The notes under the pieces: model-generated
Database searches by the model: none
What the model was told of the DNA's origin: nothing
The model's input: only the letters and a program-made list of their open reading frames with translations
NCBI GenBank assembly: GCA_963666735.1
Contig: OY762926.1
Span: 2,368,001-2,432,000 of the forward strand
Reading direction: 5' to 3'
Length of the DNA stretch: 64,000 nt
From: Gemmatimonadota bacterium
GTDB taxonomy: Bacteria; Gemmatimonadota; Gemmatimonadetes; Palauibacterales; Palauibacteraceae
In this document: positions 15,719 to 64,000 of the stretch, one piece after another
How positions within the stretch are numbered: position 1 is the first letter of the stretch
Layout of the letters: each line of letters begins with the position of its first letter
Translations under genes and position numbers: made by a program

Positions 15719-15763
15719 GCTTACCTCCAGGTTTTCCTCAACGGCCGGCCGCGATCGTCTTGC

Positions 15764-16969: not shown

Positions 16970-16978
16970 CCATCCCTC

Positions 16979-20669: not shown

Positions 20670-20730
20670 GACGCTCTCCCCGTGGCAGGTTCAGTGTGGC
20701 AAGTTCAGTCGTACCGAGCCGGAGACACGA

Positions 20731-46672: not shown

Positions 46673-46876
46673 TCAGGAAATATCGTAATAATAATAGTAC
46701 TCATCACAACACTCGCTGCCTCCTGGACACATCACCTCGCATACGCTGAGGCAAAGGGGGCCCCCATAATTACCACATGCCTGAGCTCTCGCCGTTTGCG
46801 GCGTCGCTCCGTGCATAACACCGAGCGCAACAACGGCTGTCAATATCGACCGCAGCATCAACTTCTTCCACGTCAT
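46673..46876 (-). CDS. Secreted 6-Cys peptide precursor A1 (67 aa)
   Basis: AAGGAG RBS; signal ending ARA; mature QACGNYGGPLCLSVCEVMCPGGSECCDEYYYYYDIS. Confidence 0.85.
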   Translation of the reverse strand: MTWKKLMLRSILTAVVALGVMHGATPQTARAQACGNYGGPLCLSVCEVMCPGGSECCDEYYYYYDIS

Positions 46877-46965
46877 CGTCGACTCCTTCCCCTTTTTTCG
46901 TTTCGTCCGGACTTCCCAAACAGCGCGTTTGACAAGAACCCTTTCGCTACCTGTCCCGTGATATA

Positions 46966-48138
46966 TTATCCCTTCATCGCTTCGGCGTTTGGCCTCCACA
47001 CCTCTACACGCTCGACGCCGAAATCGTCTATCGTTTTTATCAGTAAGATCTCTGGTTCGATCTGCCATAACTTCGCTTCGACCGGGAGCGACGTTCTGCC
47101 AACCGCCCGGCCGGCCCGATCAACAACCGTCCAAGTGCGAGTCTCGTCATTGCGGAATCCAGCGTCTCCCACCCAAAGGTGTTCGCCGCTGGCGCTCCAT
47201 TGCAGCTGCGCATAAAACCGGCCCCGCTCGTTGGCGTCGTCAAGCGACTGTACGTCGCGGGCTCCATTCCACTCACCACGAGGGTGATCCGGGTCCTCCC
47301 ACGTCGCAAGCAGCTCGCCCTTCGCATCCCGAATTTCGATTGCCGGCCGGTCATTAGAACTCGTCGCAAATACTCCATCTCGCGAAGTTATCGCCGCCAC
47401 CGGACCTTCCGGCGCCGCTCGAAGCCGAAAACCCGTCGTTCCTGCGGAACTCTCCCACCACATGTCACCAACCGAAAACATCAACTCTGGATCTGCTCGC
47501 CCCCCTCCAACCCGCAGCACCCGTACGGAATCCCGTGCGATCCTCATCTCCCGCGGATCCAATCCGCTCGAAACCGCAATGAACATCTCCGAACCCGATC
47601 CCGCCCACATCTCGCTAGCTTGTTGGTGTGCGTCCGCCAGCCGAACAGACATTGATTGGTTATAGACTCCTGCTCCATCGAAAACCGATATGCGAGCTCC
47701 CAGCGCATCCAAGGCCAGAACCGAACCTCCATCACCAATCTCGATCGATCGCAGGTTTCTGAACTCTCCCGGTCCTTCACCCCCTTTACCAAACGAGTAC
47801 AGAAACTGCCCGGCGCCGGAATACACACGAATCTCGCTCGTGCCCGAATTCGCAACGAACAATGTTCCATCTTGAGTCCGGAAGCCATCTAGCGCTCGAA
47901 ACAACAGATACTCAGCCGGCCCTTCCGCTAGCCCGATCCGCATCGACGGCGCCCAAGATGTTACCGCATCAACGCGACGATCAATAGTGACAGTCGCCGG
48001 CTCAATCGTGGTCAATCTCTCCGACGTCGGTTCAGCACATGACGCAACCGCCATCGCTACGACAATGACGGTACAGCGACACATCATCGACATCCGCAGG
48101 GACGACGACGATCGGGCCAATCTTGTTAATTCATCCAT
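46966..48138 (-). CDS. Beta-propeller lipoprotein of peptide locus A (alternative start 48093)
   Basis: VASC lipobox, GEGPGEF, DDFGVERVEV. Confidence 0.8.
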   Translation of the reverse strand: MDELTRLARSSSSLRMSMMCRCTVIVVAMAVASCAEPTSERLTTIEPATVTIDRRVDAVTSWAPSMRIGLAEGPAEYLLFRALDGFRTQDGTLFVANSGTSEIRVYSGAGQFLYSFGKGGEGPGEFRNLRSIEIGDGGSVLALDALGARISVFDGAGVYNQSMSVRLADAHQQASEMWAGSGSEMFIAVSSGLDPREMRIARDSVRVLRVGGGRADPELMFSVGDMWWESSAGTTGFRLRAAPEGPVAAITSRDGVFATSSNDRPAIEIRDAKGELLATWEDPDHPRGEWNGARDVQSLDDANERGRFYAQLQWSASGEHLWVGDAGFRNDETRTWTVVDRAGRAVGRTSLPVEAKLWQIEPEILLIKTIDDFGVERVEVWRPNAEAMKG

Positions 48139-48815
48139 GCAGTTTGGCTTCCTGGCGATAGGAGTTCGCGGAGCTCCAGCAGCCCTGGCGTACCGGTAAT
48201 GAGTCGCTGATCCACCACCATCGCAGGGGTGCCGATCAGAGATAGATACTGTGCTTCGATCAAAGTCGCAGCGATGCGGGACTTGTGAACCTCGCCATTG
48301 ACGCACGCACTGAAGCGAGGCAAGTCAGGGATGTCCGCTTGCCTCGCAAGTTCGTCGATTGACACAGTGGAAAGATGATCCTGAGATGCAAGAGCAATCC
48401 GGTGGAAGGTGCTGAAGCGCCCTTGGTCGCCGGCACACTCGGCGCCAAGTGCGGCCAAATAGGCGGGGTTACCGCGTATGGGGCGAACCAAGTGGCGCAG
48501 ATTTATGGTTAATGATGTCGAATCGTCGCGGATGACCGTATCGAGATTATTCCACAGTTCTCGACAAAAGGGACACAGGTAATTTGAGTAAAGGACGACC
48601 GCGATCGGACCAGTCCCGTGGGTTTGTGCGGCAGAATTGTTGCCGTAGATCTCCTGCGCCAAATCGAACTCTATATGTTCAACTGCATAAGTGGCCTCAT
48701 TGCCGGTGCGGAAAAACCCATACCAAATGACGACCGCCGCCAGCAGGAGTACCCAAAGGATTTTCGCGATGGTATTGAGAACTGTACGGCTTAGCCGCCG
48801 TATTGAGATGGGCAC
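48126..48815 (-). CDS. Membrane-anchored DsbA-like thiol-disulfide oxidoreductase
   Basis: N-terminal TM helix, YSNYLCPFC, AECAGDQG...FSAC, GTP cis-Pro loop. Confidence 0.88.
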   Translation of the reverse strand: MPISIRRLSRTVLNTIAKILWVLLLAAVVIWYGFFRTGNEATYAVEHIEFDLAQEIYGNNSAAQTHGTGPIAVVLYSNYLCPFCRELWNNLDTVIRDDSTSLTINLRHLVRPIRGNPAYLAALGAECAGDQGRFSTFHRIALASQDHLSTVSIDELARQADIPDLPRFSACVNGEVHKSRIAATLIEAQYLSLIGTPAMVVDQRLITGTPGLLELRELLSPGSQTAWMN

Positions 48816-48909
48816 AGAACCCGCTACCGGCAGCTCGCGCTGGCTTCGTCGTACACCGATGGATCTACTCCTCGTTGAGGGGCGTGTCGGTAATGCTGGA
48901 CGTTGACAG

Positions 48910-49131
48910 TTAGTCGTCTATCTTTGGAAAGTAACTGTAATGCGACGTGCAGCACTTATCTTCGTAAGGTGGCGAGCACATCAGCAGGCACGTCTTGCGA
49001 CACATCTTACCGTCGTTGGCACCGCAAGATGCCGCTGCCGTGACGTTCTGCGCACCAAAGCCTAGGGCCACCATGGTCAGGACTGCGACAGTGAGAGTTG
49101 TGGGGATGAGGTGGCTCCACTTGATCCGCAT
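48910..49131 (-). CDS. Secreted 6-Cys peptide precursor A2 (73 aa)
   Basis: AGGAG RBS; signal peptide; SCGANDGKMCRKTCLLMCSPPYEDKCCTSHYSYFPKIDD. Confidence 0.85.
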   Translation of the reverse strand: MRIKWSHLIPTTLTVAVLTMVALGFGAQNVTAAASCGANDGKMCRKTCLLMCSPPYEDKCCTSHYSYFPKIDD

Positions 49132-49199
49132 TGAGCATTTCTCCTGTCTTAGGGTTGACTTCAGCCGGCGACCGGCGACGGCGAGGAACTGAGGGTACT

Positions 49200-49229
49200 A
49201 TCCTAAGCAGGTGTGGCTACGGTTGTCAA
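49200..49229 (-). promoter_or_regulatory. Putative sigma70 promoter of locus A
   Basis: TTGACA-N18-TAGGAT on the minus strand about 70 nt upstream of the A2 start. Confidence 0.55.
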
Positions 49230-49399
49230 GGGCTGCCGGGACTCGACGTGTCAAACCGCAATAGAAATGTCCGGGGTTAGAGCGCAGTAGAAATGTCCTC
49301 CCCCGGCGGTTCGGTTTTGCCCCGCTCCCGGGCCGGTTCGGTCGTGCGGGGCGGTTCCTTCTCGTTGGATATCTCTTCTCTCTCGCGGCGGAGGTCTCG

Positions 49400-50656
49400 G
49401 CGGGCGACGGCCTGCTGGACCGAGGCTTGGAAGTGCCTGCGCCACGGGTGGTCCGGAGCCGGCTTCGGGGGCGCGGGCCTCGGCTTCGCCGACTTGGCGG
49501 GCGCGTCGCCGGGGGAGGCGGGGGGGGCTCGGCATAAGGGTTCGAGCTCCAGGTAGCGCTCGCCGAAGCGGACCTCGCCGCCGAGGCGGCGCTCGACGAC
49601 GACCTAGTCGCCGGGGGCGATGCCGGCGGCGTCGCTCTCCGGGATCTGCCAGTGGTGGTTCCGGAACCGGACCGGGAGGTCGCGGGCCACGACGCGCCTC
49701 TCCGTCTCGGCGAAGAGCGCCTCGAGGTCCGCACCGGCCGGTAGCGGGCGGTGCGCGTCGCGGGGATCGGCGGGCTCCACGGCGAAGCGTTCGTTTCAGA
49801 ACGGGACCCAGTAGTCGGCGAGGAAGCGGTTGGCCCCCTCCAGCGTGGCGATCCCCTCCACCCGCATCTCCCTGACCAGCCGGTCCTGTGCCGTGCCGAA
49901 GCTGCGCTCGACCCGGCCCTTGGCCTGAGGCGAGCCCGCGAGGATCACCTCGACGTCCAGCTCGCCCAGTGCCCGGGCGATGATCGTGTCCGTGCGCTCC
50001 TCCTTCTTCGACAGCCACTGCCCGAAGTGTCCGGCGTGGTCGGTGTACACCGCCACCGGGCGGCCGTGGCGGCGCAGGTAGCCGATGATCGCCCGCCGGT
50101 TCTCCGCCCCGTCGTCGCGCGCCGCGAAGCGGGCCATGAGCAGCCGGCTCGTCGCGTCGTCGTGGATCGAGATCAGCGTCTGGCTCCCCGGCAACCTCTC
50201 CTCCAGCCACGGATGCACCGAGCTGTCCCACTGCCCCGGCTCGCCCAGCGCCGCCCGCCTCGGACGCCGGCGGCGGTGCTTCGCGCGCTTGCGGCGACGC
50301 TCCCACAGCCCGGCCTCCAGCATCCAGCACCGCAGCGTCTCCGCGCTCAGACGCAGCCCGAAGCGTCTTTCCAGGTGTTCCGCAAGCAGCGTCGGCCCGA
50401 AGTCCCGGTACAGCGGATCCCTCGCAACCTCCAGCGCCCGCTCCCGATCTTCCGCGCGCAGCGCCCGGTTCGACCGCCGTCCCCGCAGGCCGTGTACCGC
50501 CGCCGCATCGCCCTCCGCCTCGAACCTCCGGCGCAACCGGCGAAAATGCCGCCGAGTCACGCCGATCCGCTCCGCTCCCGCAGCGACCGTCAGCACTCCC
50601 TCGCTCACCTGTCTCAGCACCGAGATGCGATCCCGCTCCCTCAGACTCAGGTCCAT
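49400..50656 (-). pseudogene. IS1202/ISNCY-type DDE transposase with premature stops (3' end approximate)
   Basis: HTH, QWDSSVHPW, DDATS, YTDH, SPQAKGRVER; in-frame TGA at 49796 and TAG at 49604. Confidence 0.85.
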
Positions 50657-50720
50657 CCGCTCCCCTCCCGGATCCCGTTCCGCCGTTGACCGAACATGGA
50701 CCGTAAGAGGACATTTCTAC

Positions 50721-52457
50721 CTCGGATCCTGCGTTGGTGCATAATCGGACGGCCGGAGGCGCGATTATGACCTGCGGCTGTGGCGATTTGGCGCGGGTGG
50801 TGGCGTTTTCGGGGCCGGACCGGGCCTCGGTGGGGGGCCGGCGGGGTTCGGGAGGGACCCCGGGCGGCGCGCGGAGACACGGGAACGGGGCGCCGCCGCG
50901 CGGCGCCTTCGCAAGGCCGGGTCCGGGGTCGGTCAGGCGGGCGCGGGCGGCGGGAGGCCGTTCTCGATGGTGCGGAGCGCCCGCCGCGGGAGGCCGAGGG
51001 CCGACTCGCCGCGCGCGAACCCGAGCGAGGTTCGGCGGGCGTGGGAGGTGATCCTGGCCGGGGCGCGCAGCAGGCGCAGCCGGATGCCGCGCGGCTGCGC
51101 GGTGCCCCAGCGGCCGCCGAGGCAGTTCGCGCGCAGGATGTGGAGGAGTTGGTAGGCGAGCGCGGCGAGGCCCCACAGGAGGGCGTTGCCGCCGAGGTCG
51201 TCGACCGCGGTGCGCCCGGCCGAGAGCGGGCCCAGCTCCTCGATCCGCTGTTCGACGACCGCGCCCGCGTTGTAGGCGCGCCACGCGTCGACGGGGCCGA
51301 CGCCCTCGATGTTGGTGAGAACGTCGGCGCTCATCGCGGTCTCCCACGCCGCGAGGTCGAGCTCCCCCTCCTCCGGCCCGATCCGTCTCCGCCTCTCGAC
51401 CGAGAGAAGCCGCGTCCCCCACAGCTCGCCGGAGGCGGTCCTCAACTCCCGGTCCCCGGCCCCGTCGGCGGCGGCCGTCTCCCAGGCGCCCCGGAAGCCG
51501 TCGAGCCAGCCGTGCCGCGGCACCTTGAGCAGATAGGAGACGCCGAGCTCCTCCATGCTCGCCGCGATGCGCTTGGAGAAGAACCCCTTGTCCAGCCGCA
51601 CGGTGATGTCCCGCACCCCCGCCTCCCTCAGGCGGGCCACCAGCCCGGCCAGCCACGCCTCGGCTCCCCCGGCCGTGTGCGCGTTGCCCGGCCGCCAGCG
51701 CACCCCGAGGCAGTCGCCCGTCTCCAGGACGTAGGCCAGCAGCGGATGGTGCGAGGGACGGCCCGGCTTCTTCGGATTGTAGCCCTTCTCCGCCCCGGCC
51801 TGTCTCAGCCCGTAGCGCACCACCACGGTCGAGTCCATGACGACCGTCGCCGACCGGGGCGCCCCGCCCGCCATCTCCCAGCGCCGCCGCACCATCCGCC
51901 ACGGCAGCTCGTCCAGAAGCGGCGACAGCACGGCCGCCGAGCGCCGCAGCCAGCGCCCGAACGTGGCCGGGTGCGGCACCCGCCTCCAGCCGAAGATGCG
52001 GCGTACCCCCCGCCGCTCGAGAAACGGCAGGTCGTCCATCACCCCGCCGCCGTACAGGAGCAGCGCCACCCACAACTCGACCATCAGCGACGGCCGGTAG
52101 CGGCCGGGGACGTTCCCGGTCCGGTCGTCGATCCAACGGCCCAGCCCCAGCGCGTCCCACAGCCTCCGGACCACGACCAGGCCGCCCGCGTCGGTGATCC
52201 GTACGCCGCCGCCGCGGACCCCCGGCGCCGCCGCCGATCCTTGCACGTGCGGGCGCGATCCGGTATAGTCGTTTCCGCGCACCATTCGGGTGTCCTCCGT
52301 TCCGGGGTGAACTCTTGTCCAGTCCCTCTGAACGTAGGGCCCCGGGCGGTGCGTTTCCATAGTCCGACACTATGCTCTCACTATCGTCAAGGCTTCCGCG
52401 GCCCGGCTACGGCCGCCCTCCCGGACGAGCCCCGCGCCAACGATCGCAGGATCCGGG
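50721..52457 (-). mobile_element. IS1380-type element with transposase ORF 50933-52360
   Basis: Terminal IR CTCGGATCCTGCG / CGCAGGATCCGGG (12/13); DSTV, GYNPKK...HPLLA, RPGNAHT, RLDKGF, YN...VEQRIEE. Confidence 0.8.
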
Positions 52458-52486
52458 TTGACAGCTCTGGCCCGCTTCCGTAGAAT
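52458..52486 (+). promoter_or_regulatory. Near-consensus sigma70 promoter of locus B
   Basis: TTGACA-N17-TAGAAT, 51 nt before the ATG at 52538. Confidence 0.75.
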
Positions 52487-52537
52487 TGTCGTCGCTATTC
52501 AACTTAGTTTGTCTCGCCAATTCCGTGGAGAATGCAG

Positions 52538-52765
52538 ATGAACAAGGTCGCCTTCCGTTGGAATCGCCTGCTTCAGCTCTTGGGCCTGCTCCTGATCGCC
52601 GTGTTGTCAGTTGGCCCCGAAGCCGCGCGAGCTCAAGAAGCAGGCGACGACGACTGCTTTCAGTTATACGGTTGCGAAGTCTGTCCCGCTCAAGACCCGG
52701 ACTGCATCACATATGTCTGCCCGGTCGGTGACCCCAGGGGTGTGGGGATCCTCTGCATAGGATGA
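52538..52765 (+). CDS. Secreted 6-Cys peptide precursor B (75 aa)
   Basis: GGAG RBS; signal ending ARA; mature QEAGDDDCFQLYGCEVCPAQDPDCITYVCPVGDPRGVGILCIG; ATGA overlap with the next gene. Confidence 0.85.
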   Translation: MNKVAFRWNRLLQLLGLLLIAVLSVGPEAARAQEAGDDDCFQLYGCEVCPAQDPDCITYVCPVGDPRGVGILCIG

Positions 52766-54561
52766 CTGCTGGATCGCGCAGTCCAGGGGATAAAGGGGAT
52801 GGTCGGTGGAACCGGGTCGTCAACATTGCGATCTTGGGAGTGCTCGCCATCCTGCTGTTCAATCCGTCGGGTGTGGTGGGAAGCTGGATCATCGCAGAGT
52901 ACAAAGAATGGCAGGAGCAGCGGCGAATCGCCCTGAACTGGCCGGAGTTGACAAGCGCATCGAGTTATCTTGGTCCGTCGCCTCTACAGGATGGTGCCGT
53001 CATAGTGGAGTTTGTGGACTATGACTGTCCCGCTTGTAAGGCGGTGGCTCCCGATGTCCTGGAGGGTGCTCGCGGCCGCGGCGTTACGGTGATTATGCGC
53101 CACGTCCCCTCTGAACGCGGTGGTCCGGCTGCAACGGAAGCGGCTCTCGCGGCGATCTGCGCAGAGCAGTACGGTCTGTTCCCGGAGGCGCATGGCGCGC
53201 TGATCTCGGAGGAGATGTGGCTGGAGACTCGAGATTGGGCGGGCTTCGCCGTCAACTTGGGAATTGGCGACCCAGAGTCGTTCGGCAATTGTGTGAGCGA
53301 GGAAGAAGCACCGCGGCGCCGTCTCGCCCGCGACGTGGAGTTGGCGGAAGTTCTGCGGATTCCCGGGACGCCGACCTTTGTCTCAGCCGAAGAGTTGCAC
53401 TTGGGGGCGCCGGGACTGGCGTCGGCGTTGGCCGCGGCTGCCCCGACGCGGCAGCACGCCCCGCGTCGTCCCTCGACCGACCCGGTCTTCGATTCGTCGG
53501 AGCACGGGGATCTTTCCGAGCGGCTGCTGTCCGTCAGAGCTGGCTTCTTCACGCCGGACGGTGGTCTCGTTGTGGTGGACCGCACCGAGATCCACATCAT
53601 CGACATGGCGTCCGGGGAGCATCGAGTGGTGGGGCGCAAGGGAGGGGGGCCGGAGGAATTCAGCCACATATCGCGGGCGGTTCGCACGTCGGAGGGTGTC
53701 GCCGTTAGCGACTACCTCAGACGTCGTATCGTGTCGATTGGGCGCGATGGCGGTTTTGGCCACTCCCAAAGCTACTCGGATGTTCCGCTCAACAGCCTTC
53801 AACCGCAGCTGGTAGCCCGTCATCCAGACGGCAGCACGGTCTTCCGCGACGTCGCGCCGCGCGTGCGGCAATCCGAGGGTCGATACTGGCGGCCAGCTCG
53901 GTACGTGGCGGTGGATGCCGACGGCGGACTTCGGGTGGTCGCGGAGACACCAGGCAACGAACGGTACTCCGACACGAGAGACAACAGTCCCGTGTTGTTT
54001 GGTCACCGGACATTGGAAGCGGCGACCGCAGACCGTCTCGTCGTCGCCGAAACTGACCGGGGATCCATCTCGGTACTCGACTGGAGCGGCGTGCCGGTCG
54101 CCGGTATTCCGATGCCGGCCAGCGTTAGGCTGTCCGCGGACCAGGTGCGGATGGGGCGAGAGTCCGCGGCGTCGCAGCGGCGGCAGGAAAGGGGGTGGCT
54201 CGTGGAAGCCGCGTTGGACGGCAGGTTCCCGTTCCCGCCGTCGGCCGTAGAGGAGCGACTCCTCTCCTTTTCGCCGGACTGGCCGGCAAACGAAGTGGCG
54301 CCCCCGATCGATGCGATGCTGACGGACTTCGATTCGAGACTCTGGGTGAGAGATTATCGGCTTCCCGGCCAGGATAGCGTAACGTGGCGAGTGTGGGACA
54401 TCGACCGGGAGCGGCTGCTGTTCACGGCGAGCATGGATGGTGAGGACACGTTGCTCGACGCGCGAGGCGACGTAGTGCTGCTGCGCCGATTGGATCCATT
54501 CGACGCTCACCAGGTTGTGGTTACTCCGCTTGGCCCCGAGCAGGCCAATGGGGGGACTTAG
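52762..54561 (+). CDS. DsbA-like domain fused to a beta-propeller
   Basis: TM helix, EFVDYDCPAC, AICAEQ...FGNC, PGTPTF; then GGGPEEF and a C-terminal DPFDAHQV propeller motif. Confidence 0.85.
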   Translation: MTAGSRSPGDKGDGRWNRVVNIAILGVLAILLFNPSGVVGSWIIAEYKEWQEQRRIALNWPELTSASSYLGPSPLQDGAVIVEFVDYDCPACKAVAPDVLEGARGRGVTVIMRHVPSERGGPAATEAALAAICAEQYGLFPEAHGALISEEMWLETRDWAGFAVNLGIGDPESFGNCVSEEEAPRRRLARDVELAEVLRIPGTPTFVSAEELHLGAPGLASALAAAAPTRQHAPRRPSTDPVFDSSEHGDLSERLLSVRAGFFTPDGGLVVVDRTEIHIIDMASGEHRVVGRKGGGPEEFSHISRAVRTSEGVAVSDYLRRRIVSIGRDGGFGHSQSYSDVPLNSLQPQLVARHPDGSTVFRDVAPRVRQSEGRYWRPARYVAVDADGGLRVVAETPGNERYSDTRDNSPVLFGHRTLEAATADRLVVAETDRGSISVLDWSGVPVAGIPMPASVRLSADQVRMGRESAASQRRQERGWLVEAALDGRFPFPPSAVEERLLSFSPDWPANEVAPPIDAMLTDFDSRLWVRDYRLPGQDSVTWRVWDIDRERLLFTASMDGEDTLLDARGDVVLLRRLDPFDAHQVVVTPLGPEQANGGT

Positions 54562-54569
54562 CTAGCTAG

Positions 54570-56813
54570 TTAGATCACCTGGAACGTCACCCACTGGGAG
54601 ACCCAAACTGCAGTCAGCTCATCGCTGTTGCTCGCGGGCCGGAAGCGCATCTGCTCGACGACTTCCGCGGCGGCGCGGTCCAGCGCCTCGTTGCCGCTGC
54701 TCGTCTTCACTCTGTGGTTGACAACGGCACCCGACAGGTCGACGTAGAGCCACATCTCGACCCGGCCACCAATGCCCGCTTGCTTCAGGTCGCTCGGATA
54801 AGCTCTCTCGATCGCCTGCTGTATCTCGCCCCCATTCTGAAGAGCCGGGGGCGTGTCGTACCCGACGAAGGTCGGCTGGTCCGCCGGGGCATCGCTGTCT
54901 GCGGCGCCGCCCTTGGTCGTGATTGCAACCACGCCATTCCTGGCACGCTCACCGTACATCTCGACAGCCCGCTCGCCCTTGACGACGTCGACATGGTCGA
55001 TATCGAGAGCCTGGAGGTCTGCCAAGCTCGTGCCCTCGGATAGCATGACTCCGTCGACGATGATGAGCGGCGCCTCGTCCATTGCCGGCGTGACGAAAAT
55101 ATCCGGGGCCCCATCCTGGTCGAAATCCGCGATCAAGTTCTCACTCTCGTGGTCCGTGCTGTCCATCGCGCCGGTCTTGGTCGTGATTTCGACCACGCCA
55201 TTCCTGGCGCGCTCGCCGTACAGATCGACCGCCCGCTCGCCCTTGACGATCTCGACGTGGCCGATGTCGAGGGCCTGTATGTCTCCCAGGCTCGCGCCCT
55301 CGGATAGCATGACTCCGTCGACGATGATCAACGGATTCAGCGCCTGTCGGACCGTTGGGTGCAGCCACAGATCCGCATCGTCCCCGTCAACGGGCCGGCC
55401 GTTGAGAAGGATGTCGCGCAACTCCAAGGGTTCCTCGGTCTGAGGAGGACCGCCGTCAACTGGGATCATGTCCCCAACCTCGAAGGTGACCCACTGGGAG
55501 ACCCAGACGTCGGTCGGCTGGTCACGGTTCATCGCGGGCTCGAAGCGCATCGTCGCGACCACATCGGCGGCGGCGGCGTCCAGAGCATCGTGGCCGCTGC
55601 TCATCTTGAGTTCGGAGTTCCGGACCACCCCGGACGCGTCGAGGTACAGCCACACTTCGACTCGGCCGCCGATTCCCGCCGTCATGAGGTCCCGCGGGTA
55701 GGCGTCCTGGAGGGCTAGCATCACAGCCCCGGCGTTCTGCAGAACCGGCGGCCTGTCGTACGCGATGAAGGACGGCCGGTCACCGCGCGCCATGACCTCC
55801 TCGCCGGGCACCAGCGGAGGCGCCCATTCGCTGGATTCGGACGGCGGTGTCACCGTCGCGGCGGGCGGTTCCGGCGCGTTCACGGAAGTCTCGGGTCCGG
55901 GGCAGCCGAGCACGAAGAGGACGGCGACCATGACCACCCCCGAAGCCCCCAGCGTTCGGAGCGGACGCATGCTGGCCGCCGGCTCGGTCATGCGGCGCAG
56001 GCGTCGTTCCACGGCCGGCTTGCGTTCGGCGAAGGCGGCGGCCGCGAGCAGCGGGCCGGAGACGCGGCTGCCCACGGTGAGGAGGGCGTCCGCGTAGTCG
56101 CGCGGCGACTCCCCCCGCCGGAGCACGCGACGGTCGCAGTCGAACTCGATCGCGAGCCGCAGCCGGGACAGCTGCCACCACACGAGCAGGTTCCAGGGCA
56201 TCAGCACGAGGGCGGTGACCGCCGCGGCGAAGAGCCGATGGTCGCCGGCGCGCTGATGCTCCCGCTCGTGGAGAAAGACGAGGCGGAGCAGCCTGTCCTC
56301 GAGTTCGGGGATCCACTTCGGCATCACGACGATCGAGCGGCGGATGCCGACGACGGCCGGTCCCCGCTCGTCGGAGATCATGACCGGCGATCCCGCGACG
56401 CGGCCCGGCGTCCATGTCCGCATCTCCGACCGCAGCCGACCGTAGATCCGGCCCAGGTAGCCGACCATGGCGACGGCCAGGAGCACCCAGCCCCACCCCA
56501 GCACCGTGCCGACGGCCGCCCCATCGAAACCCCCACCGGCCTCCGCGGCCATCGCGGGCAGTTCCGGCGCCGCGGCGACGATCGCCGGACCGCTCAACCC
56601 GACCGCCGGCGCGGCGGACGACACCCCGAAGCCGGGGAGGAGTCCGGGAGCGAGGAAGGCGACGACGGGCACCGTCACGGATCCGGCGACCGCCGCGAAC
56701 CACGCCCAGCGCACGGGCTTGCGGAAGTGGCCCAGCGCCCGCTCCGAGGCGAGGGCGGCCAGGGCGAGGAGTCCCGAAATCAACAGGCAGTATCCGATCC
56801 AGGCGATGACCAT
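54570..56813 (-). CDS. BlaR1/M56 peptidase fused to TonB-C and plug-like domains
   Basis: HEREH, AIEFDCD; two TonB-C repeats (YP..GIGGRVE.W); two PLIIVDGV...NGVV.ITTK repeats. Confidence 0.88.
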   Translation of the reverse strand: MVIAWIGYCLLISGLLALAALASERALGHFRKPVRWAWFAAVAGSVTVPVVAFLAPGLLPGFGVSSAAPAVGLSGPAIVAAAPELPAMAAEAGGGFDGAAVGTVLGWGWVLLAVAMVGYLGRIYGRLRSEMRTWTPGRVAGSPVMISDERGPAVVGIRRSIVVMPKWIPELEDRLLRLVFLHEREHQRAGDHRLFAAAVTALVLMPWNLLVWWQLSRLRLAIEFDCDRRVLRRGESPRDYADALLTVGSRVSGPLLAAAAFAERKPAVERRLRRMTEPAASMRPLRTLGASGVVMVAVLFVLGCPGPETSVNAPEPPAATVTPPSESSEWAPPLVPGEEVMARGDRPSFIAYDRPPVLQNAGAVMLALQDAYPRDLMTAGIGGRVEVWLYLDASGVVRNSELKMSSGHDALDAAAADVVATMRFEPAMNRDQPTDVWVSQWVTFEVGDMIPVDGGPPQTEEPLELRDILLNGRPVDGDDADLWLHPTVRQALNPLIIVDGVMLSEGASLGDIQALDIGHVEIVKGERAVDLYGERARNGVVEITTKTGAMDSTDHESENLIADFDQDGAPDIFVTPAMDEAPLIIVDGVMLSEGTSLADLQALDIDHVDVVKGERAVEMYGERARNGVVAITTKGGAADSDAPADQPTFVGYDTPPALQNGGEIQQAIERAYPSDLKQAGIGGRVEMWLYVDLSGAVVNHRVKTSSGNEALDRAAAEVVEQMRFRPASNSDELTAVWVSQWVTFQVI

Positions 56814-56817
56814 GTCC

Positions 56818-57189
56818 CTACTCCTTCGAGCTGAGGCGTTCGTCCACCAGGCCGCGCAGGTTCTCGAGGTCCTCCTTCGAGAGCGCCCGGTCGGAGACGA
56901 GATGCGTGAGCAGCAGTTCCGGCGACCCCTGGAACATCTTCTGAACCAGCCGGCGCACCGCGCTCGCCCCGGCGCATTCCCGCCCGACGAGCGTGTGATA
57001 GCGGTAGGCCTTCCCCTCCTGGGTGTGCCCCACGTACCCCTTCTCCTCCAGCGTCCGGAGGATCGTGAGCACGGTCGTGTAGGCCAACTCATCGCCGAGG
57101 CGGTCCTGCACCTCCGCCACGGTCGAGGCCCCTCTCTCCCAGAGCACCGCCATGAGGTCGAGTTCCCGAGTCGTGAACTTGATCTCCAC
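56818..57189 (-). CDS. BlaI/MecI/CopY family repressor
   Basis: RELDLMAVLW, LAYTTVLTILRTLEEKGYV. Confidence 0.93.
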   Translation of the reverse strand: MEIKFTTRELDLMAVLWERGASTVAEVQDRLGDELAYTTVLTILRTLEEKGYVGHTQEGKAYRYHTLVGRECAGASAVRRLVQKMFQGSPELLLTHLVSDRALSKEDLENLRGLVDERLSSKE

Positions 57190-57381
57190 GAGACCCGTCC
57201 TTTCGTCCCGAACCGTCAGCGTCGCCACCCGCGGCGGCCGGCCGTCGTCGAAGCGGCGGCGGGCCGAGCTGCGGCGTCGTTCCCGAGTGAGCGTAAACGC
57301 GCCGGGGCGCCGCTGTCAACTAGGTACGTAGTAGAAACGTCCGAAGGACCCCGATCGGGACATGGGGCGGGACGCGCGGGT

Positions 57382-60300
57382 TTACGCGCGCAACCAGTTG
57401 TGTGCGAAACGCACGAACCAGGAGGCGCCGGCGGACCGCAGGAAGCCGCAGGCCTCGCGTTGATCGCCGGGCCGGTTGGGTGGGGAGTACGTGCCGGCCA
57501 GCACTCTCAGCTTCTCGGCGCTCAGCCTGTCCAGCTCGGCTGTATGATCCGCGGCTTCGATGAGACCGTCGACCGTGGCCCGGCGGTCGCGAGTCCCCAT
57601 CGCCGCGGCGCGAAACCAATTCACCAGGTAGAGGTCGTTCTCCCCCACCCCATCGGAACCATCCCCTATCCGTTCGAGGCAGGCCTCCACCTCGCTCTGA
57701 TTGTCATCGGTCATCGCCAGCAGGCCGGTGAGTGCTTGCGCCTGCGCTCCGAACGGATGTTGACCCATGTGCCCGGGACACCGGAGCAGCCGCTCCATGT
57801 ACCGTCGACAAAGAGCGTAGTCCCCCTTGAAGAAGACGCACTCTGCCTGATTCAGCAGGGCGCAGGCTCGGGCTTCGGGTGGACTCTCGAGCGCCTCGTC
57901 CATCTTGCGGCAGCGACCGAGTTCATCGAGCGCCCGCTCGAAGTTGCCGAGTTCCAGCAGCACCGCGCCCAGGTTGTTGAGGTTCACCGACTCGTGGCGG
58001 TTCCCGTTGAGGATCCCGGAGGCATCTTCGAGCAGCCGGAGGGCATCGTGGAGACGCGCGCCTCGCATCGCCACCCAGAACTCGGCGGCAGTGGCGGCCC
58101 TGAAGCCCTCGTAGCCGAGCCAGTTGAGCTTGTGGCGGCAAGTCTCGAGCACCAGGCGAGCCTCCGTGAGACCGCTTTGACCTCCGACCTGCTGGAAGAG
58201 GAGCCGAAATGCATCGCACCAGACGCCCGCGTGGCGGGCATCCTCCTGGACGATCCCTCGGAGATGCGTGCGGATCCTCTCGACACCGGGCTTCCCGGTC
58301 CGCCGGAGCGTAGCATCCGTTGCCTCGAGTACGACCATCTGCACGGTCAGCGCGCGGATGAGCGCCGGGTCGGTCGCGTGCCCGCGAGCCTCCTTCAGAT
58401 TCCGTCGGTGCAGACCCGTCGCGAGTCGGTCTCCCGACGCCACCGCCGCCCGCGCCAGCGCCAATTGGACGCGGCTCAGGTCGTTCCCGGTGTCCGCGAC
58501 AGCGGCAATCTGGTGCAGCACGCCCGCGGCCCGTCGAAACCGGCCTCGCTGAAACTCGGCTTCCGACAGGAGGAAGCCGGAGCGCAGACGCTCGGCTCCG
58601 GCCGTGGCATGCTCGAACGCCAATGCCGCCGCCCGACCCGCGACCGGCGATCGGCCTTCCCGCAAAGCCCGCTTCGCCACCTTGCAGGCCAGACCGAAAG
58701 CACGGGAGGACTCTCCGGCCGCGGCCAGTTCGGAGGCGGCCGCCGCACGCGCGCCGAGACCAGCGTTCTCAAGGGCTCGAGCCGCTGCCAGGTGCACCTT
58801 CGTTCTCTCGTCCGGCTGCAGATTCCACGCGAGCACGGCACCGGCCAGCGGACGGCTCAGCGTCCATTGGTCGGTCTCGGAGTGTAACCAGCCCTTGGCC
58901 CGGAGCCCTTCAAGAGCCTCCCCGCTCGAATGTCCGGCCACGATCACATCGCCGTGGGCGCGCGCCGCGCGCGTGAGCAGCGCCAACGTCGTCGCCAGCC
59001 GTCCTTCACGGCGCGAGAGCGCGGCCAGTTGATCGCCGACGAGCGACCGAACCTCGGCGGACCGCTCATACGCCAATCGTCCGCCCGATTCCCGGTCGCT
59101 GGCTGTCGCAGGGCTGAAGTTGTGGCGCATCCACGCCCTGAGGATCGCCCGAGCCAGAGCCGGATTGCCTCCGGAGAGCCTCGCGCTCTCGACCGCCTGG
59201 TGAGGACCGCAGCCCGTCTCGGTCGCCGCAAGCGACACCGCGCACGCTTCGGTGGTGAGTGGATCGAAGTTGATTACGAAGTCCACCAGACGGGCGGCTT
59301 CCGCCTGCCGAGCCACGTCCGGGTCCGAGAAACCGACGACCATGGCGCCTGATGGATCTGCTGGATCTGCGGTCCGCATGACCTCCTCCACGGCGGCCCA
59401 ATCCCGAACATCGGCTCTGATCACGATGAGCCGCGTCTTTCGGGGGTAGCGGCGCAACTCCGAGGCCAGCTTCTCTCGCGTCCCTGCCAGGTCCGGCGGA
59501 AGCCACTGCACCAGCCCTCCACCGCCGCATACGAGCGCGGCGAAGTTCCGCACGACGTTTTCCCTCCCGGAACCGCGCTCGCCGGCCAGGACCAACCGTA
59601 CGGGCGCGGCGCCGGATGCACGGCGAGCGACCCTCAGTTGGCGGAACTCTCCTCCTCGATCCGACATCCGCGGTTCGTGGCGCTCGCGGACGACCGGAGG
59701 CGCGGCGTCCAGCTGGCTTCGAGCCCACGCCGCCGTTTCCGTCAGCTTCGTGGCGCTGGCGACCCATCCGCATTTCTCCAGTGCTCCGTAGTATGCAAGG
59801 GCGGAGGCGTAGTCGCCCTTCATGCCCAATGCACGCATGAGAGTGCTGTGCGCGTGCTCGTCGAACTCGTTTTGCCTCACGAGCCGGAGCGCGGCCAGAC
59901 ACGTCCGGTCCCAGTCGCCGCTCTCCTCGGCGGCTTGCTGTACGTTCTTGAGCGCCATGGCGACCAGAACGCGGCAACGCTCCCGTTCGCCGTCCAGCCA
60001 GCGCTCGAACTCGTCGGCTCCCAGGTTGAGCAGGCCGGTGGCGAAGTCTCCCCGGCACAGATCGATGACGGTCTCGTGATCCCCGTCCTCGAACGCCCGT
60101 TCGAAAGCATCGAGTTCGTACGTAACCCGCCGCGGTATGAGCCGGACCGTGTTGACGTCCACCGTGATCACCGGACCCATGGACGACCGGATGTCGTATA
60201 GTGCCTGGCTGAGCGAATGTCGCGCCTTCTTGTCGCGGCTGTCCCAGAGCAGATCGGCGAGCGTCTCCCGCATGTGAACGGCGCGGGGGTGCGCAACGAG

Positions 60301-60399
60301 ATAGAGCAGGAGGCCCATGTGCTTCCTTGACCGCAGCGAGATTCTTGCCCCCCGTGCGTCCGAGGCCGTGACCTCGCCGAAGCAGCGCAGCGTGAACAT
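57382..60399 (-). CDS. SARP/BTAD transcriptional regulator with degenerate NTPase and TPR regions
   Basis: LLLYL...RETLADLLW...ARHSLSQALY, FERWLDGERE, DEHAHSTLMRAL; GERGSGR; LNNLG TPR. Confidence 0.8.
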   Translation of the reverse strand: MFTLRCFGEVTASDARGARISLRSRKHMGLLLYLVAHPRAVHMRETLADLLWDSRDKKARHSLSQALYDIRSSMGPVITVDVNTVRLIPRRVTYELDAFERAFEDGDHETVIDLCRGDFATGLLNLGADEFERWLDGERERCRVLVAMALKNVQQAAEESGDWDRTCLAALRLVRQNEFDEHAHSTLMRALGMKGDYASALAYYGALEKCGWVASATKLTETAAWARSQLDAAPPVVRERHEPRMSDRGGEFRQLRVARRASGAAPVRLVLAGERGSGRENVVRNFAALVCGGGGLVQWLPPDLAGTREKLASELRRYPRKTRLIVIRADVRDWAAVEEVMRTADPADPSGAMVVGFSDPDVARQAEAARLVDFVINFDPLTTEACAVSLAATETGCGPHQAVESARLSGGNPALARAILRAWMRHNFSPATASDRESGGRLAYERSAEVRSLVGDQLAALSRREGRLATTLALLTRAARAHGDVIVAGHSSGEALEGLRAKGWLHSETDQWTLSRPLAGAVLAWNLQPDERTKVHLAAARALENAGLGARAAAASELAAAGESSRAFGLACKVAKRALREGRSPVAGRAAALAFEHATAGAERLRSGFLLSEAEFQRGRFRRAAGVLHQIAAVADTGNDLSRVQLALARAAVASGDRLATGLHRRNLKEARGHATDPALIRALTVQMVVLEATDATLRRTGKPGVERIRTHLRGIVQEDARHAGVWCDAFRLLFQQVGGQSGLTEARLVLETCRHKLNWLGYEGFRAATAAEFWVAMRGARLHDALRLLEDASGILNGNRHESVNLNNLGAVLLELGNFERALDELGRCRKMDEALESPPEARACALLNQAECVFFKGDYALCRRYMERLLRCPGHMGQHPFGAQAQALTGLLAMTDDNQSEVEACLERIGDGSDGVGENDLYLVNWFRAAAMGTRDRRATVDGLIEAADHTAELDRLSAEKLRVLAGTYSPPNRPGDQREACGFLRSAGASWFVRFAHNWLRA

Positions 60400-60622
60400 G
60401 TTCTTCTCCCCTTGAAGATTGACGTGGCGCCAGAGGCTCCGGCGCCCGGAATCTACTTACGGGGGAGATATGTACTGGGTATCAACACGTTGCGCCACAA
60501 GAAGATATCAGGCGTTGGACAGGCTGTTCCGAGCCGACGCAGCTCCCCCAATAGGGGGAGTGGAGGGCCAGCCGTCGGCTACTTCGTCCAGATCACGGCG
60601 GGGCGAGGGTTCACGGGAGGGG

Positions 60623-60928
60623 CTACAGGGGGGGCTGGATTTCGTCCGGGGCCGCGAGACCCTCGTGGATCGCCTCCTCGATCTCGTCGAGGAGGTCCGG
60701 CCACTCGAGCGCGGGGTTCTTCGTCACGGTGATGAAGTTCTCGACGATGAGCAGGGCGCGAACCCCGTCCACCTCGAACAGGCGGGCGGCCAGCGGGTCC
60801 TCGGCGGCGGATTCGGGATCGAAATAGCTTCGGCTCCCCTCGCCCGGGATGTCGCGGTCGAGCACGAACTTCGCCGCGTGCGGATTCGGGGTTCCCTCGA
60901 CGGTGATCTGGATGCCGGGGTCTGTCAT
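60623..60928 (-). CDS. Nfu/NifU N-terminal domain protein
   Basis: EGTPNPHAAKF, PLAARLFEVDGV, NFITVTK..W. Confidence 0.88.
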   Translation of the reverse strand: MTDPGIQITVEGTPNPHAAKFVLDRDIPGEGSRSYFDPESAAEDPLAARLFEVDGVRALLIVENFITVTKNPALEWPDLLDEIEEAIHEGLAAPDEIQPPL

Positions 60929-61062
60929 CGGGTCCGGAGTTGGTGGCGGTGGATGCGATCCGTTTGAGTATCGGCAGGCTGGGCTTGCTCGCAAGGCCTC
61001 CTTGCCCGGACATCCTCCCGCGGGCACGATGCGAACGCGGACCCACCGACCCTGGATGATCC

Positions 61063-61533
61063 ATGATCGCTCACAGGCAACGCGGACTCGGCGCCGTCGT
61101 TCCGGTGGCGGCGCTGGCGGGCCTCGCGGGGGCCACCGCGGCGGCGGCGCAATCGGGCCCCGCCGGGCGGGCGCCGGATCGCGTCCTCGCCTTCCCCGCC
61201 CCGGTCGGAGAGGAACGGCTGGACGTGGACCGCGGAGCCGTGGGGGCCTGGCACCGGATCCGCAAGCTCGCCACGACGGCCAGCCTGCTCCACGTCACCG
61301 CCCACCCGGACGACGAGCACGCCGGCATGCTTACGCTGGCCAGCCGGGGGTGGGGCGCCCGGACGGCGCTGCTCAGCCTCAACCGCGGCGAGGCCGGGGC
61401 GAACGCGACCGGCCCGGAACTCTTCGACGCCCTCGGCCTCATCCGGACCCGCGAACTCGTCCTCTCCGGCCGCTACTACGGTCTGGACGACCTCTACTTC
61501 ACGACGGCGGTCGACTACGGCTACTCGAAGTCG
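61063..61533 (+). pseudogene. PIG-L family deacetylase, 5' fragment
   Basis: AHPDDE, NRGEAGAN, GLIRTREL, DYGYSKS, then abrupt switch to transposase sequence. Confidence 0.85.
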
Positions 61534-62673
61534 GTACGAGGCGGAGGGGCCGGAGGGTCTGCGTGACGGGCGAGTGGCGGGAGGCTCGCACCGTCGCGCA
61601 CCGGGTTCGGAGGTGGCGGCGCTGGAGGCGCTGTACCGGCAGGGGTACGAGGGCTGGAGCGCGCGGCACTTCCACGAGCGGTACGTGGAGGATCACGGCG
61701 GGAGGCGGTCGTACACGTGGGTGAAGAACCGCCTGCGGGCGGCCGGTCTTGTGAAGCGTGGCCGGCGTCGCGGCCGAAACCGGCTGAGGCGGCCGCGGAA
61801 GCCCCTGGAGGGGCTGATGGTGCACCGGGACGGCTCGACGCACGAGTGGGTGCCGGGGCGGGCGTGGGATCTCATCGTGACGTCGGACGACGCGACGGGG
61901 CGGGTGTACTCCGGGTTCTGCGTGGAGGAGGAGGGGACTTGGTCGAGCTTCCGGGGCGTGCGCGAGACGGTGGAGGCGAAGGGGGTGTTCGCGAGCCTGT
62001 ACACGGACCGGGGGTCTCACTACCGGCACACGCCGAAGGCCGGGGGGAAGGTGGACAAGGGGAAGCCGACCCAGTTCGGGCGGGCGATGGGGGAGCTGGG
62101 GATCGAGATGATTCCGTGGTACTCGCCGCGGGCGCGGGGGCGGTGCGAGCGCCTGTTCCGGACGCTTCAGGGACTGTCTGCCCAACGAGCTGGCCCGCGA
62201 GGGGATCGCGGACGTGGAGGGGGCCAACGAGTACCTGAACGGGTACTGGCCGCGGTTCAACGCGGCGTTCGGGGTGGAGGCGGCCGGGGACGGGACGGCG
62301 TTCGTGCCGCTGCCGGAGGTGGGGCTGGACGACATCCCGTGCCTGCGGGAGACGCGGACGGTCGGCAACGACAACTGCGCGTCGTACGATGGCGGGCGGC
62401 TCCGGGATCGAGCCCCAACCGCACCGGATCCACTACGTCCGGGCGAAGGTTCGGGTGCACGAGTACGAGGACGGGAGTCTGGCGGTGTTCCACGAGACGC
62501 TCCGCCTGGGCCGCTACGACCGGGAGGGATGTCCGCCGGGTGCCCTCAACGGGGCGAAGGGGCATCGTCGTGAGGCGGCCCATGGCACCCGCTCCGGCTC
62601 GTCTCCGCAGCCACGATGTTCAAACCGGACATGTTACGTGCTACAAAACCGGACAACTTCATTGCTCCTTACA
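61532..62673 (+). mobile_element. 5'-truncated, frameshifted IS1202/ISNCY-type element
   Basis: RYEAEGPEGLRD, DGSTHEW, DDATG, YTDRGSHY, ARGRCERLF; frameshifts; end with AAACCGGACA x2 (62622, 62646) and terminal ACA. Confidence 0.8.
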
Positions 62674-62843
62674 CTGATCCTAGCGGCGGTGCTGACGCCT
62701 GGGTTAGCGTAGTAGATAGGTAACTGCCACGTTTGAATTTGCGTATCTGCTGCGATGCGACGCGAGTCGGCAGAGCGGAACCGCCGGGCGGTCCATCGGG
62801 TGTCCGCAACGCGATTGAAGGTCCTAACAGGAGGGAATCGCTC

Positions 62844-63080
62844 ATGAGTGTGAGAACCAAGCTGTCGTTTCTTGGAGTTGTTCTCGCGGCGCTACTCTGG
62901 GGCGGAGGCGTCGTTGCAGGTCAAATTCGGGCACCGGTGGCCGAGCTGGATCGGACAGATGACGCGGCTAGACCGCTATGCTGTGCACTGGCACATCGGC
63001 CAGATTGTTGCACGGTCGCGATCAGATGCCTGCCGGGCGACACGTGCTGCACGTGTGGGTCTCCTTGCCGTCCAGGCTAG
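62844..63080 (+). CDS. Secreted 9-Cys peptide precursor C (78 aa)
   Basis: AGGAGG RBS; signal peptide; ...PLCCALAHRPDCCTVAIRCLPGDTCCTCGSPCRPG. Confidence 0.75.
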   Translation: MSVRTKLSFLGVVLAALLWGGGVVAGQIRAPVAELDRTDDAARPLCCALAHRPDCCTVAIRCLPGDTCCTCGSPCRPG

Positions 63081-64000
63081 TCGCGCTAACCGCCTGCGCC
63101 TTCCTTGCCGGAGGCGCCGTCGCAGTAGCGGGCTGCGACCCCGGCGGCCGTGGCGAATGGGCGGGAACGGAGTACGACAGCGTCGGCGTCAGGGTCGTGG
63201 CCAATCCCCTGGTTGCCCTCTGGACCCGAAGCACTGCCTGGCGCGTCGAGCGCGACCTCACAATTGGGACGGACACTGGTCTGCCGGAATACGAGTTCGG
63301 TCGGGTTGTGGATGTGGATGTGGGTCGCGATGGGATGATCTACGCGCTGGACCAGATGTCAGCTCAGGTGCGGGTCTTTGATTCAAGGGGTGAACATCTC
63401 TTCTCCTTTGGCGGCTTGGGGGAAGGCCCTGGGGAACTGAGCAATCACGACCCGCTCGGTGCCCTGGCGGTGCTTGCCGATTCCGGGGGCGACTTGCTCG
63501 TCGTTGATCGCGTAAACAACCGACTGAATCGGTTCACGGGCGATGGCGAGTTTCTGGGATATGTGGACTTGGGTGTCCAGAGCGGCGAGGTCGAGCCCAT
63601 CGCTTCGGGGATCCTGCCGAATGGCGACTATCTCGTGCATCGCGTGGTCCGCGATCGGTGGAACGGAATCCTGCGGGTCGACCCACATGAAGGTCCAACC
63701 CTGGACACGCTATTGGCGTTCTCCCTCCAGCCGAGTGCGTGGGGACTCACACGGAGGAACGAGCAGGGACGCACGGAGGCCCTCATGCACTCACCGCTTT
63801 GGTCGATATTACCGGACGGCCGGCTGGTAGCCGGACGATCCGATCAGTCGTCCTTTCAGGTGTGGGGACCCGGCAAGCGGCTGAAAATGGTGGTAAGGAG
63901 ACATGAGCCCAACCCCATTCTCTCCGAATCGGGCCAGGAACGCTATCTGGATCGCCTGATGGAGATCTGGGAGACGATGTTCAGAGACGAGGGGGAGTCG
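63065..64000 (+). CDS. Beta-propeller lipoprotein of locus C (runs off window; start 63026-63065)
   Basis: Translated by hand: VAGC lipobox, YDSVGV, TIGTDTGLPEYEFGRV, FGGLGEGPGEL. Confidence 0.8.
   Translation, partial: MPSRLVALTACAFLAGGAVAVAGCDPGGRGEWAGTEYDSVGVRVVANPLVALWTRSTAWRVERDLTIGTDTGLPEYEFGRVVDVDVGRDGMIYALDQMSAQVRVFDSRGEHLFSFGGLGEGPGELSNHDPLGALAVLADSGGDLLVVDRVNNRLNRFTGDGEFLGYVDLGVQSGEVEPIASGILPNGDYLVHRVVRDRWNGILRVDPHEGPTLDTLLAFSLQPSAWGLTRRNEQGRTEALMHSPLWSILPDGRLVAGRSDQSSFQVWGPGKRLKMVVRRHEPNPILSESGQERYLDRLMEIWETMFRDEGES

Follow-up and report, generated by a model that had tools for sequence, protein, structure and literature searches.

Small cysteine-rich peptides with predicted secretion signals are encoded beside six-bladed beta-propeller genes at three places in a 64,000-nucleotide stretch of the genome of a Gemmatimonadota bacterium (the window; contig OY762926.1, positions 2,368,001 to 2,432,000), and two of the three cassettes, here called A, B and C, also carry a DsbA-type thiol oxidoreductase domain. 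The genome as a whole has about two dozen such peptide-propeller cassettes. This peptide-propeller pairing is real, recurs in related genomes and is in part fast-evolving, suggesting a toxin-and-antidote or a signal-and-receptor system. A disulfide peptide with a dedicated oxidase is a known kind of arrangement; for the peptide-propeller pairing itself we found no published description, in a search that most subscription papers and supplements lay beyond. Below, G000 is the genome under study (3.98 Mb), other G-numbers (G002, G003, G017, G033 and so on) are its relatives, and L-numbers are individual loci. The genes of the three cassettes, in window coordinates, are as follows.

46673..46876, minus strand: peptide A2, 67 amino acids (aa), 6 Cys, with a Sec-type signal and a 36-aa mature region of net charge -5.
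46966..48138, minus strand: propeller A, a 390-aa lipoprotein (lipobox VAS-C), NHL-type and six-bladed, DUF5128 (Pfam E 6e-7); start inferred, in part from the length of P0003.
48126..48815, minus strand: DsbA-type oxidoreductase A, with an N-terminal membrane anchor, CPFC, a second Cys pair and a GTP cis-Pro motif; Thioredoxin_4/DSBA Pfam match; ratio of nonsynonymous to synonymous substitution rates (dN/dS) 0.25.
48910..49131, minus strand: peptide A1, 73 aa, 6 Cys, net charge 0, a paralogue of A2 with an identical 6-Cys frame.
52538..52765, plus strand: peptide B, 75 aa, 6 Cys, with a signal and a 43-aa mature region of net charge -7.
52762..54561, plus strand: DsbA::propeller fusion, 599 aa, with a membrane anchor, a CPAC DsbA domain (residues ~20-225) and a six-bladed propeller (~235-599).
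62844..63080, plus strand: peptide C, 78 aa, 9 Cys, with a strong ribosome-binding site (RBS).
63026..64000 and on to 64348, plus strand: propeller C, a lipoprotein (AVAG-C); DUF5128 match at E 7e-4, under the cut-off; start codon inferred.

The initial annotation, made from the window alone, had described four peptide open reading frames (ORFs) of 67-78 aa, each with an RBS, a signal and 6-9 Cys, a propeller beside every peptide and a CxxC DsbA-type domain at two loci. These observations were confirmed, the lengths and Cys counts exactly and the neighbours by Pfam and a propeller profile, and its interpretation is partly supported. The layouts also agree: cassette A reads peptide-DsbA-propeller-peptide on the minus strand, cassette B peptide-[DsbA::propeller], and cassette C peptide-propeller, its propeller stopping past the window edge at 64348 with no DsbA after it. 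The three are separate cassettes with insertion sequences (IS) between them, not one operon. Public DNA contigs cover A, B and C each separately with zero differences (four runs, three from one study that is possibly the source).

The linkage between peptides and propellers in G000 is one-way, in that peptides are almost always found by a propeller and propellers are mostly alone. Under a strict definition (small ORFs with a signal, called by a hydropathy heuristic, and at least 6 Cys, a neighbour being a same-strand propeller within 2.5 kb), 11 of 12 peptides have a propeller neighbour, against 5.9% of the strand-space covered (p = 3e-13), and outside the window the figure is 7 of 8 (p = 2e-8). 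Laxer thresholds place 25 of 62 ORFs near a same-strand propeller, and every peptide-homolog match at E < 1e-4 lies within 2.1 kb of one. Viewed from the propellers, a peptide accompanies 22 of the 79 near-full copies in G000 by a rule-based call, with peptide remnants beside about five more, and for several pairs peptide family follows propeller clade. Among 78 consensus-like loci taken from the propeller alignment (mostly Gemmatimonadota/Longimicrobiales, one Ca. Palauibacter), a same-strand peptide-like ORF was found in four and a same-strand DsbA in none.

Other genomes of the class also have cassettes A and B, with the cysteines fixed. Cassette A is found in the same order in G003 and G017, with all six Cys retained; family A comprises 46 representatives in a library clustered at 50%, and its profile matches 11 of 401 phylum genomes. 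Eleven family A loci lie outside G000 and G017: nine are true peptides (in eight cassettes), all with a same-strand propeller, and two are noise. L082 and L085 were dropped as non-peptide matches. Four of the eleven loci have a DsbA match, and three have an unclassified ORF of 175-180 aa in its place. At L079-L081 the family A-like peptide is followed by a membrane-anchored protein of this size, which has a single Cys motif and matches nothing in Pfam, and then by the propeller. Peptide B is matched in 13 of 251 class genomes; at 15 loci analysed the DsbA::propeller fusion adjoins in 11, neither part lies within 1.5 kb in three, and one gave no peptide call. The fusion spans two families of genomes as a single polypeptide, and gene order is the same from family to family and where the proteins are 41-63% identical. 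The expected conservation and recurrence in other genomes thus held for A and B and failed for peptide C, which is called from anatomy and position only because no credible homolog was found in 200 class genomes (seven weak matches are not peptide genes beside propellers). The 29 loci closest to propeller C (30-39% identity) are all peptide-less; these loci, L096-L124, form a conserved, order-wide DUF5128-like lineage in housekeeping neighbourhoods. Searching from the enzyme, the best 30 DsbA loci of 151 genomes have a propeller in 19 cases, a peptide in 15 and both within 1.5 kb in nine. At L152, L156, L159, L161, L165 and L174, DsbA stands with secreted peptides of 6-10 Cys and no recognised propeller within 1.5 kb; one of these six loci adjoins a MacB/FtsX permease. 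Two unpublished genomes, G116 and G154, count towards denominators only (including that of the 200-genome search), and no positive claim is made on them.

Some of the cassettes change quickly, and do so unevenly. For cassette B, compared among G000, G033 and G002 with NG86 counts and with the frameshifted G014 and G029 propeller copies excluded, dN/dS was 0.28-0.36 for the signal, 1.3-1.7 for the mature peptide, 0.21-0.25 for DsbA and 0.57-0.96 for the propeller, and amino-acid change exceeded that of DsbA in both the mature peptide (Fisher p 0.001-0.004) and the propeller (p 0.0007-0.014). When seven propeller B alleles were mapped by alignment onto the secondary structure of the propeller A model, an approximate procedure, sites with at least three states made up 28 of 161 top-face positions vs 10 of 185 in strands and bottom together (p = 5e-4) and 3 of 63 in the bottom alone (p = 0.016), and the ratio of nonsynonymous to synonymous polymorphism (pN/pS) was 1.02 on the top face vs 0.46 in the strands. 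A third cassette (genome 3.873-3.877 Mb) repeats B in part: its signals are conserved and its mature regions fast. Cassette A has uniform dN/dS values of 0.23-0.3, both peptides standing at 0.23 vs G003.

Propeller B also occurs as an orphan. A conserved gene for a YNCE-like lipoprotein can carry a copy of 82-91% identity, fused in frame at its 3' end; the gene is present in 29 of 36 genus genomes and unfused in G000 (G000:C1:2467614-2469326; other loci are L064-L067, L070, L036, L134 and L138). The fusion is seen at 8 of 27 loci, with six junction sequences (the G018, G009 and G031 YNCE loci are outside the 27). Monophyly of seven fused alleles was rejected (approximately unbiased (AU) test, p = 1e-4, 2000 replicates with a warning; the short G019 and G022 were left out), a result that recombination could also give. 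No peptide B was seen in five genomes with the fused propeller (G017, G014, G029, G024 and G022), and a DNA search of five genomes (94-97% complete) turned up no peptide-DsbA segment of cassette B; the cassette in G003 is a distant one. In G002, 250 bp of the YNCE 3' end directly precede an intact cassette B. This remnant suggests that the cassette once stood behind the YNCE gene and that the orphan propeller arose there by deletion of the peptide and DsbA. An inversion or shufflon linking locus B with the YNCE-like gene, 45 kb distant, was rejected, as G000 has no second junction copy and the fused alleles retain the original downstream gene.

A purine-rich RBS precedes each of the four window peptides, whose N-termini combine a basic region, a hydrophobic stretch and an AxA-type site, so that the precursor would be exported via Sec and lose its signal peptide. 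The frame of A2 is C-x7-C-x3-C-x3-C-x5-CC-x3-YxY and that of B is C-x5-C-x2-C-x6-C-x4-C-x11-C; the two are alike only in the signal region (hhalign probability 17%), and the 26 such peptides curated in G000 show many unrelated Cys spacings, which leaves the earlier idea of one peptide family unsupported. Most are net acidic (22/26), and the Cys count is even in 16 and odd in 10. None of the 26 matches Pfam over the cut-off, and scans of Pfam and NCBIfam gave no named family. The model of A2 is a signal helix plus a beta-hairpin (pTM 0.45) for which a PDB fold search returned nothing above Z 2.7, and a spider-toxin Pfam entry matched 3 of 47 family A members at E 0.013 only; with such a hairpin, modelled for A2, and such acidity, the proposed likeness to defensins and conotoxins is conjectural. 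Among the other G000 cassettes, L002 (331-337 kb) contains identical duplicated peptide-propeller units in tandem, the called peptide start being probably too late; at L006 (1922788-1924540) a 9-Cys peptide gene directly ahead of a propeller is apparently split by a multi-copy insertion sequence; and at L012 (2767-3213) and L015 (2961-3410) a small secreted PDZ-domain protein lies between peptide and propeller.

The view that the cassettes belong to no standard class of ribosomally synthesised and post-translationally modified peptides (RiPPs) fits their Sec-type N-termini, the lack of a named family and the lack of a class-defining enzyme in the cluster. Specifically, no radical SAM, YcaO, LanM, MNIO or C39 (peptidase-ABC) family was present among 20 window ORFs (38-64 kb) scanned with Pfam, nor were radical SAM, YcaO, LanM or MNIO found in 10 ORFs scanned with NCBIfam or in 42 neighbours of related loci, trans-acting enzymes not having been searched for; the sole C39 match in the genome is 1 Mb distant. 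PADLOC profiles for anti-phage defence matched none of eight proteins.

By their predicted thioredoxin fold, CxxC, cis-Pro motif and export signal or anchor, the cassette enzymes classify as DsbA-type. CxxC and GTP are invariant in 10 of 10 aligned copies, the N-half of the fusion matches Thioredoxin_4/DSBA in Pfam, and the best PDB relatives are named DsbA (E 1e-28), with ScsC- and DsbG-type proteins also among the matches. The proposal of dedicated enzymes was upheld: five of the genome's seven Thioredoxin_4 domains are next to a propeller and another sits by the only VKOR, and this separate DsbA-VKOR pair makes the cassette enzymes extra paralogues. No DsbB was found in the genome. Anchored in the membrane, the cassette-specific DsbA would oxidise the peptide cysteines in the periplasm, probably being recycled by the housekeeping VKOR.

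The propellers resemble binding scaffolds. The C-half of the fusion has no Pfam match and scores 1.6e-55 on a profile of G000 propellers that includes its own sequence among the seeds. Propeller A was modelled with pLDDT 92.8; in fold searches, eukaryotic NHL domains scored highest (Z 19-22), along with the Bacteroides proteins 3S9J and 4RAA. PAL-type amidating lyase propellers have conserved His metal ligands; the PAL-type 3FW0 ranked 20th among many propellers (Z 16.7, residues not mapped one to one), and the polar columns conserved in at least 70% of 59 propellers contain no His and no Cys. The nearest named homolog is a Gemmatimonadetes '6-bladed beta-propeller', a single-protein search with propeller A over the genome contigs gave no match, and the ESM Atlas returned unnamed clusters only (0.77-0.83, inside the range of shuffled proteins). 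An iterated profile search found 93 propeller ORFs in G000, including tandem arrays. Seven DUF5128-like propeller genes stand in tandem in the window itself (14504-23171, minus strand) with no small Cys-rich ORF adjoining, a candidate orphan array.

The reading that we consider best, with a probability of roughly 0.4, is that of a polymorphic effector, the peptide, aimed at related cells, with the propeller as its cognate binding or immunity protein. The folded peptide would bind the variable top face of the neighbouring propeller, which would remain cell-bound, either as a lipoprotein or fused to DsbA, and peptide-less propellers would be orphan immunity genes. This fits best because of the one-way linkage, the orphan arrays, the capture of an orphan by the YNCE-like gene and the variable top face. 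Polymorphic toxin-immunity systems have the same properties: an effector is rarely without its partner, orphan immunity genes are many, tandem arrays occur and variable slots are rich in IS. Unlike those systems, the cassettes encode no known toxin domain, and their products are free disulfide peptides of 4-8 kDa, not large delivered toxins.

Several results weigh against this reading. Propellers without a peptide are the majority (57 of 79 in G000, 74 of 78 elsewhere), so the claim that the propeller is dedicated to the peptide is unsupported; a peptide-less lineage is conserved across the order at 29 of 29 loci, and at 6 of the 30 top DsbA loci a peptide is present while no propeller lies within 1.5 kb. 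Two of the eight fused orphan propellers are frameshifted, so drift may explain the fused orphans. The ratios above 1 in mature peptide B come from three genomes and NG86 counts, which do not establish an excess over 1, and propeller hypervariability is seen neither in cassette A (0.28 vs 0.25 for DsbA) nor in the third cassette (0.41 vs 0.31). The peptides are mostly acidic, unlike typical bacteriocins, and many have an odd Cys count. The DsbA fusion, finally, fits a folding role equally well.

That last point leads to an alternative that we regard as somewhat unlikely, in which the propeller is maturation machinery that holds the peptide beside DsbA (as chaperone or substrate-binding module) or tailors it, the peptide acting elsewhere. 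In family B the two parts form one polypeptide at most loci, thioredoxin-NHL fusions exist elsewhere (NHLRC2, in the accessible text of PMC6107167), and as no leader is left after the signal peptide, a partner has to recognise the variable core itself, a demand that would likewise make the top face vary. However, the propeller is retained after loss of the peptide and DsbA, most propellers have no adjoining substrate gene, and the conserved polar columns offer neither His nor Cys. An unlikely candidate is peptide-receptor signalling or kin recognition, with a strain-specific signal, a propeller receptor and orphans that eavesdrop. It accounts for the one-way linkage and the variation just as the effector-immunity reading does, acidic peptides suit binding over membrane killing, and the genes flanking the slot in G000, G003 and G033 include BlaI/BlaR1-M56-TonB genes and a BTAD-TPR regulator; these regulators, however, belong to the core genes and adjoin a slot that varies, no recurrent signal-transducing gene appeared among the 42 neighbour ORFs scanned or beside family A loci, and the propellers have no cytoplasmic domain.

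A variable surface module against a third party (host, phage or predator), or a metal-binding peptide, the variation reflecting evasion or drift, is quite improbable: the sheer number of propellers and their arrays, the odd Cys counts and acidity, and the NHL binding scaffolds as nearest folds are in its favour, but the fixed Cys frames beside dedicated enzymes of the CxxC oxidase type, and the tracking of propeller clade by peptide family, are not. That the genes merely gather at insertion hot spots with no functional link, as the IS elements, the duplicated segment around the loci and the many peptide-less propellers might hint, is hardly credible given same-strand overlapping or adjacent genes, an order retained between distant relatives and the same architecture in Bacteroidota.

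The Bacteroidota comparison concerns NVEALA loci (PF14055). On the Phocaeicola sequence OY726023.1, four NVEALA peptides over the cut-off each precede a lipoprotein, and two of the four are followed by DUF4221 or TolB_like/DUF5128 six-bladed propeller matches; on NZ_CP111046.1, two unnamed 4-Cys peptides follow a seven-propeller array. As here, a small secreted Cys peptide directly precedes a six-bladed propeller lipoprotein, in tandem repeats; unlike there, our peptides have 6-9 Cys and a DsbA-type partner. PF14055 matched none of the four window peptides, none of 22 other G000 peptides and none of 47 family A members (G000 best 14.4 bits vs a cut-off of 27). The peptide-propeller architecture is not unique to Gemmatimonadota and matches the NVEALA loci with a different peptide family. 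No named family was found, nor any paper on NVEALA, DUF5128 or the TolB-like 6-blade, most subscription papers being beyond the search. A term search of the main text of the Palauibacterales description (PMC10469786) gave no mention of propellers, RiPPs or bacteriocins.

Other known systems share parts of the design. Sublancin, with BdbAB, is a bacteriocin with a dedicated thiol oxidoreductase. In bacteroidetocins, too, a disulfide-peptide gene is paired with its own oxidoreductase, deletion of which attenuates toxin activity; as far as the accessible text of PMC6671954 goes, their loci have a double-glycine leader, a peptidase-ABC exporter, no immunity gene and no mention of a propeller, in contrast to the Sec signal, acidic peptides, propeller partner and lack of an adjacent C39 exporter here. 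NHLRC2/SOQ1 likewise has a thioredoxin-fold domain N-terminal to a six-bladed NHL propeller; in the accessible text of PMC6107167 it differs in its CC(I/V)NC motif and its lack of conserved gene neighbours, compared with the DsbA-class CPAC, upstream peptide gene and variable, not conserved, propeller face of our fusion.

A wider scheme, which we put forward tentatively, is a class-wide polymorphic ligand-receptor code. Each genome would export dozens of unrelated disulfide mini-proteins via Sec, each recognised by its own NHL propeller with a top face that diversifies in step, and orphans would act as immunity or eavesdropping receptors. The NVEALA loci of Bacteroidota would then represent this system in a second phylum, and DUF5128/DUF4221/TolB_like propellers would acquire a function. 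Should each peptide have a cognate propeller, one of the largest lipoprotein expansions as yet unexplained (in Gemmatimonadota, as with the 93 ORFs here, and in Bacteroidota) would gain a testable function, and the pairs would be a natural library of stable scaffolds, matched binders and oxidases. A conserved signal with a fast-changing mature region is a hallmark of disulfide-rich mini-proteins in animal venoms and of defensins; to our knowledge such mini-proteins are little known in bacteria. The ~26 peptides with many Cys frames in this one genome were missed by Pfam, NCBIfam and a codon-based gene caller.

Around the cassettes, the window contains the following further features.

49200..49229, minus strand: sigma-70-like site TTGACA-18-TAGGAT ahead of cassette A, a consensus match only, with similar sites in G003 and G017.
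49248..50720, no strand assigned: multi-copy insertion sequence (HTH and integrase core) between cassettes A and B, outside the system.
50723..52461, no strand assigned: second multi-copy insertion sequence (DDE_Tnp_1_4), outside the system.
52458..52486, plus strand: sigma-70-like site TTGACA-17-TAGAAT (11/12) ahead of cassette B, a consensus match.

The -35 hexamer of cassette B is retained in G033 and G002, both without the IS. A promoter common to all peptides was rejected: the site stands before 2 of 25 of them, as against 53 of 2505 genes. Insertion sequences lie also ahead of cassette C. The cassettes are patchily distributed, with exchange at one slot and GC at third codon positions (GC3) of 0.73 vs 0.79; the GC of cassette A is ~0.60 vs 0.68. 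The variable slot is flanked by a BlaI-type repressor, an M56-TonB_C-plug protein and a 1005-aa BTAD/TPR regulator (54570-60399, minus strand), with two M56-TonB copies at the slot in G003 and G033. A 942-bp duplication (97.9%; window 60594-61535 and 66475-67416, the latter genome 2434475-2435416), covering an Nfu_N gene and the beginning of a PIG-L gene, lies around cassette C and an IS, and a diverged second copy of the 3' part of the BTAD-TPR regulator follows cassette C.

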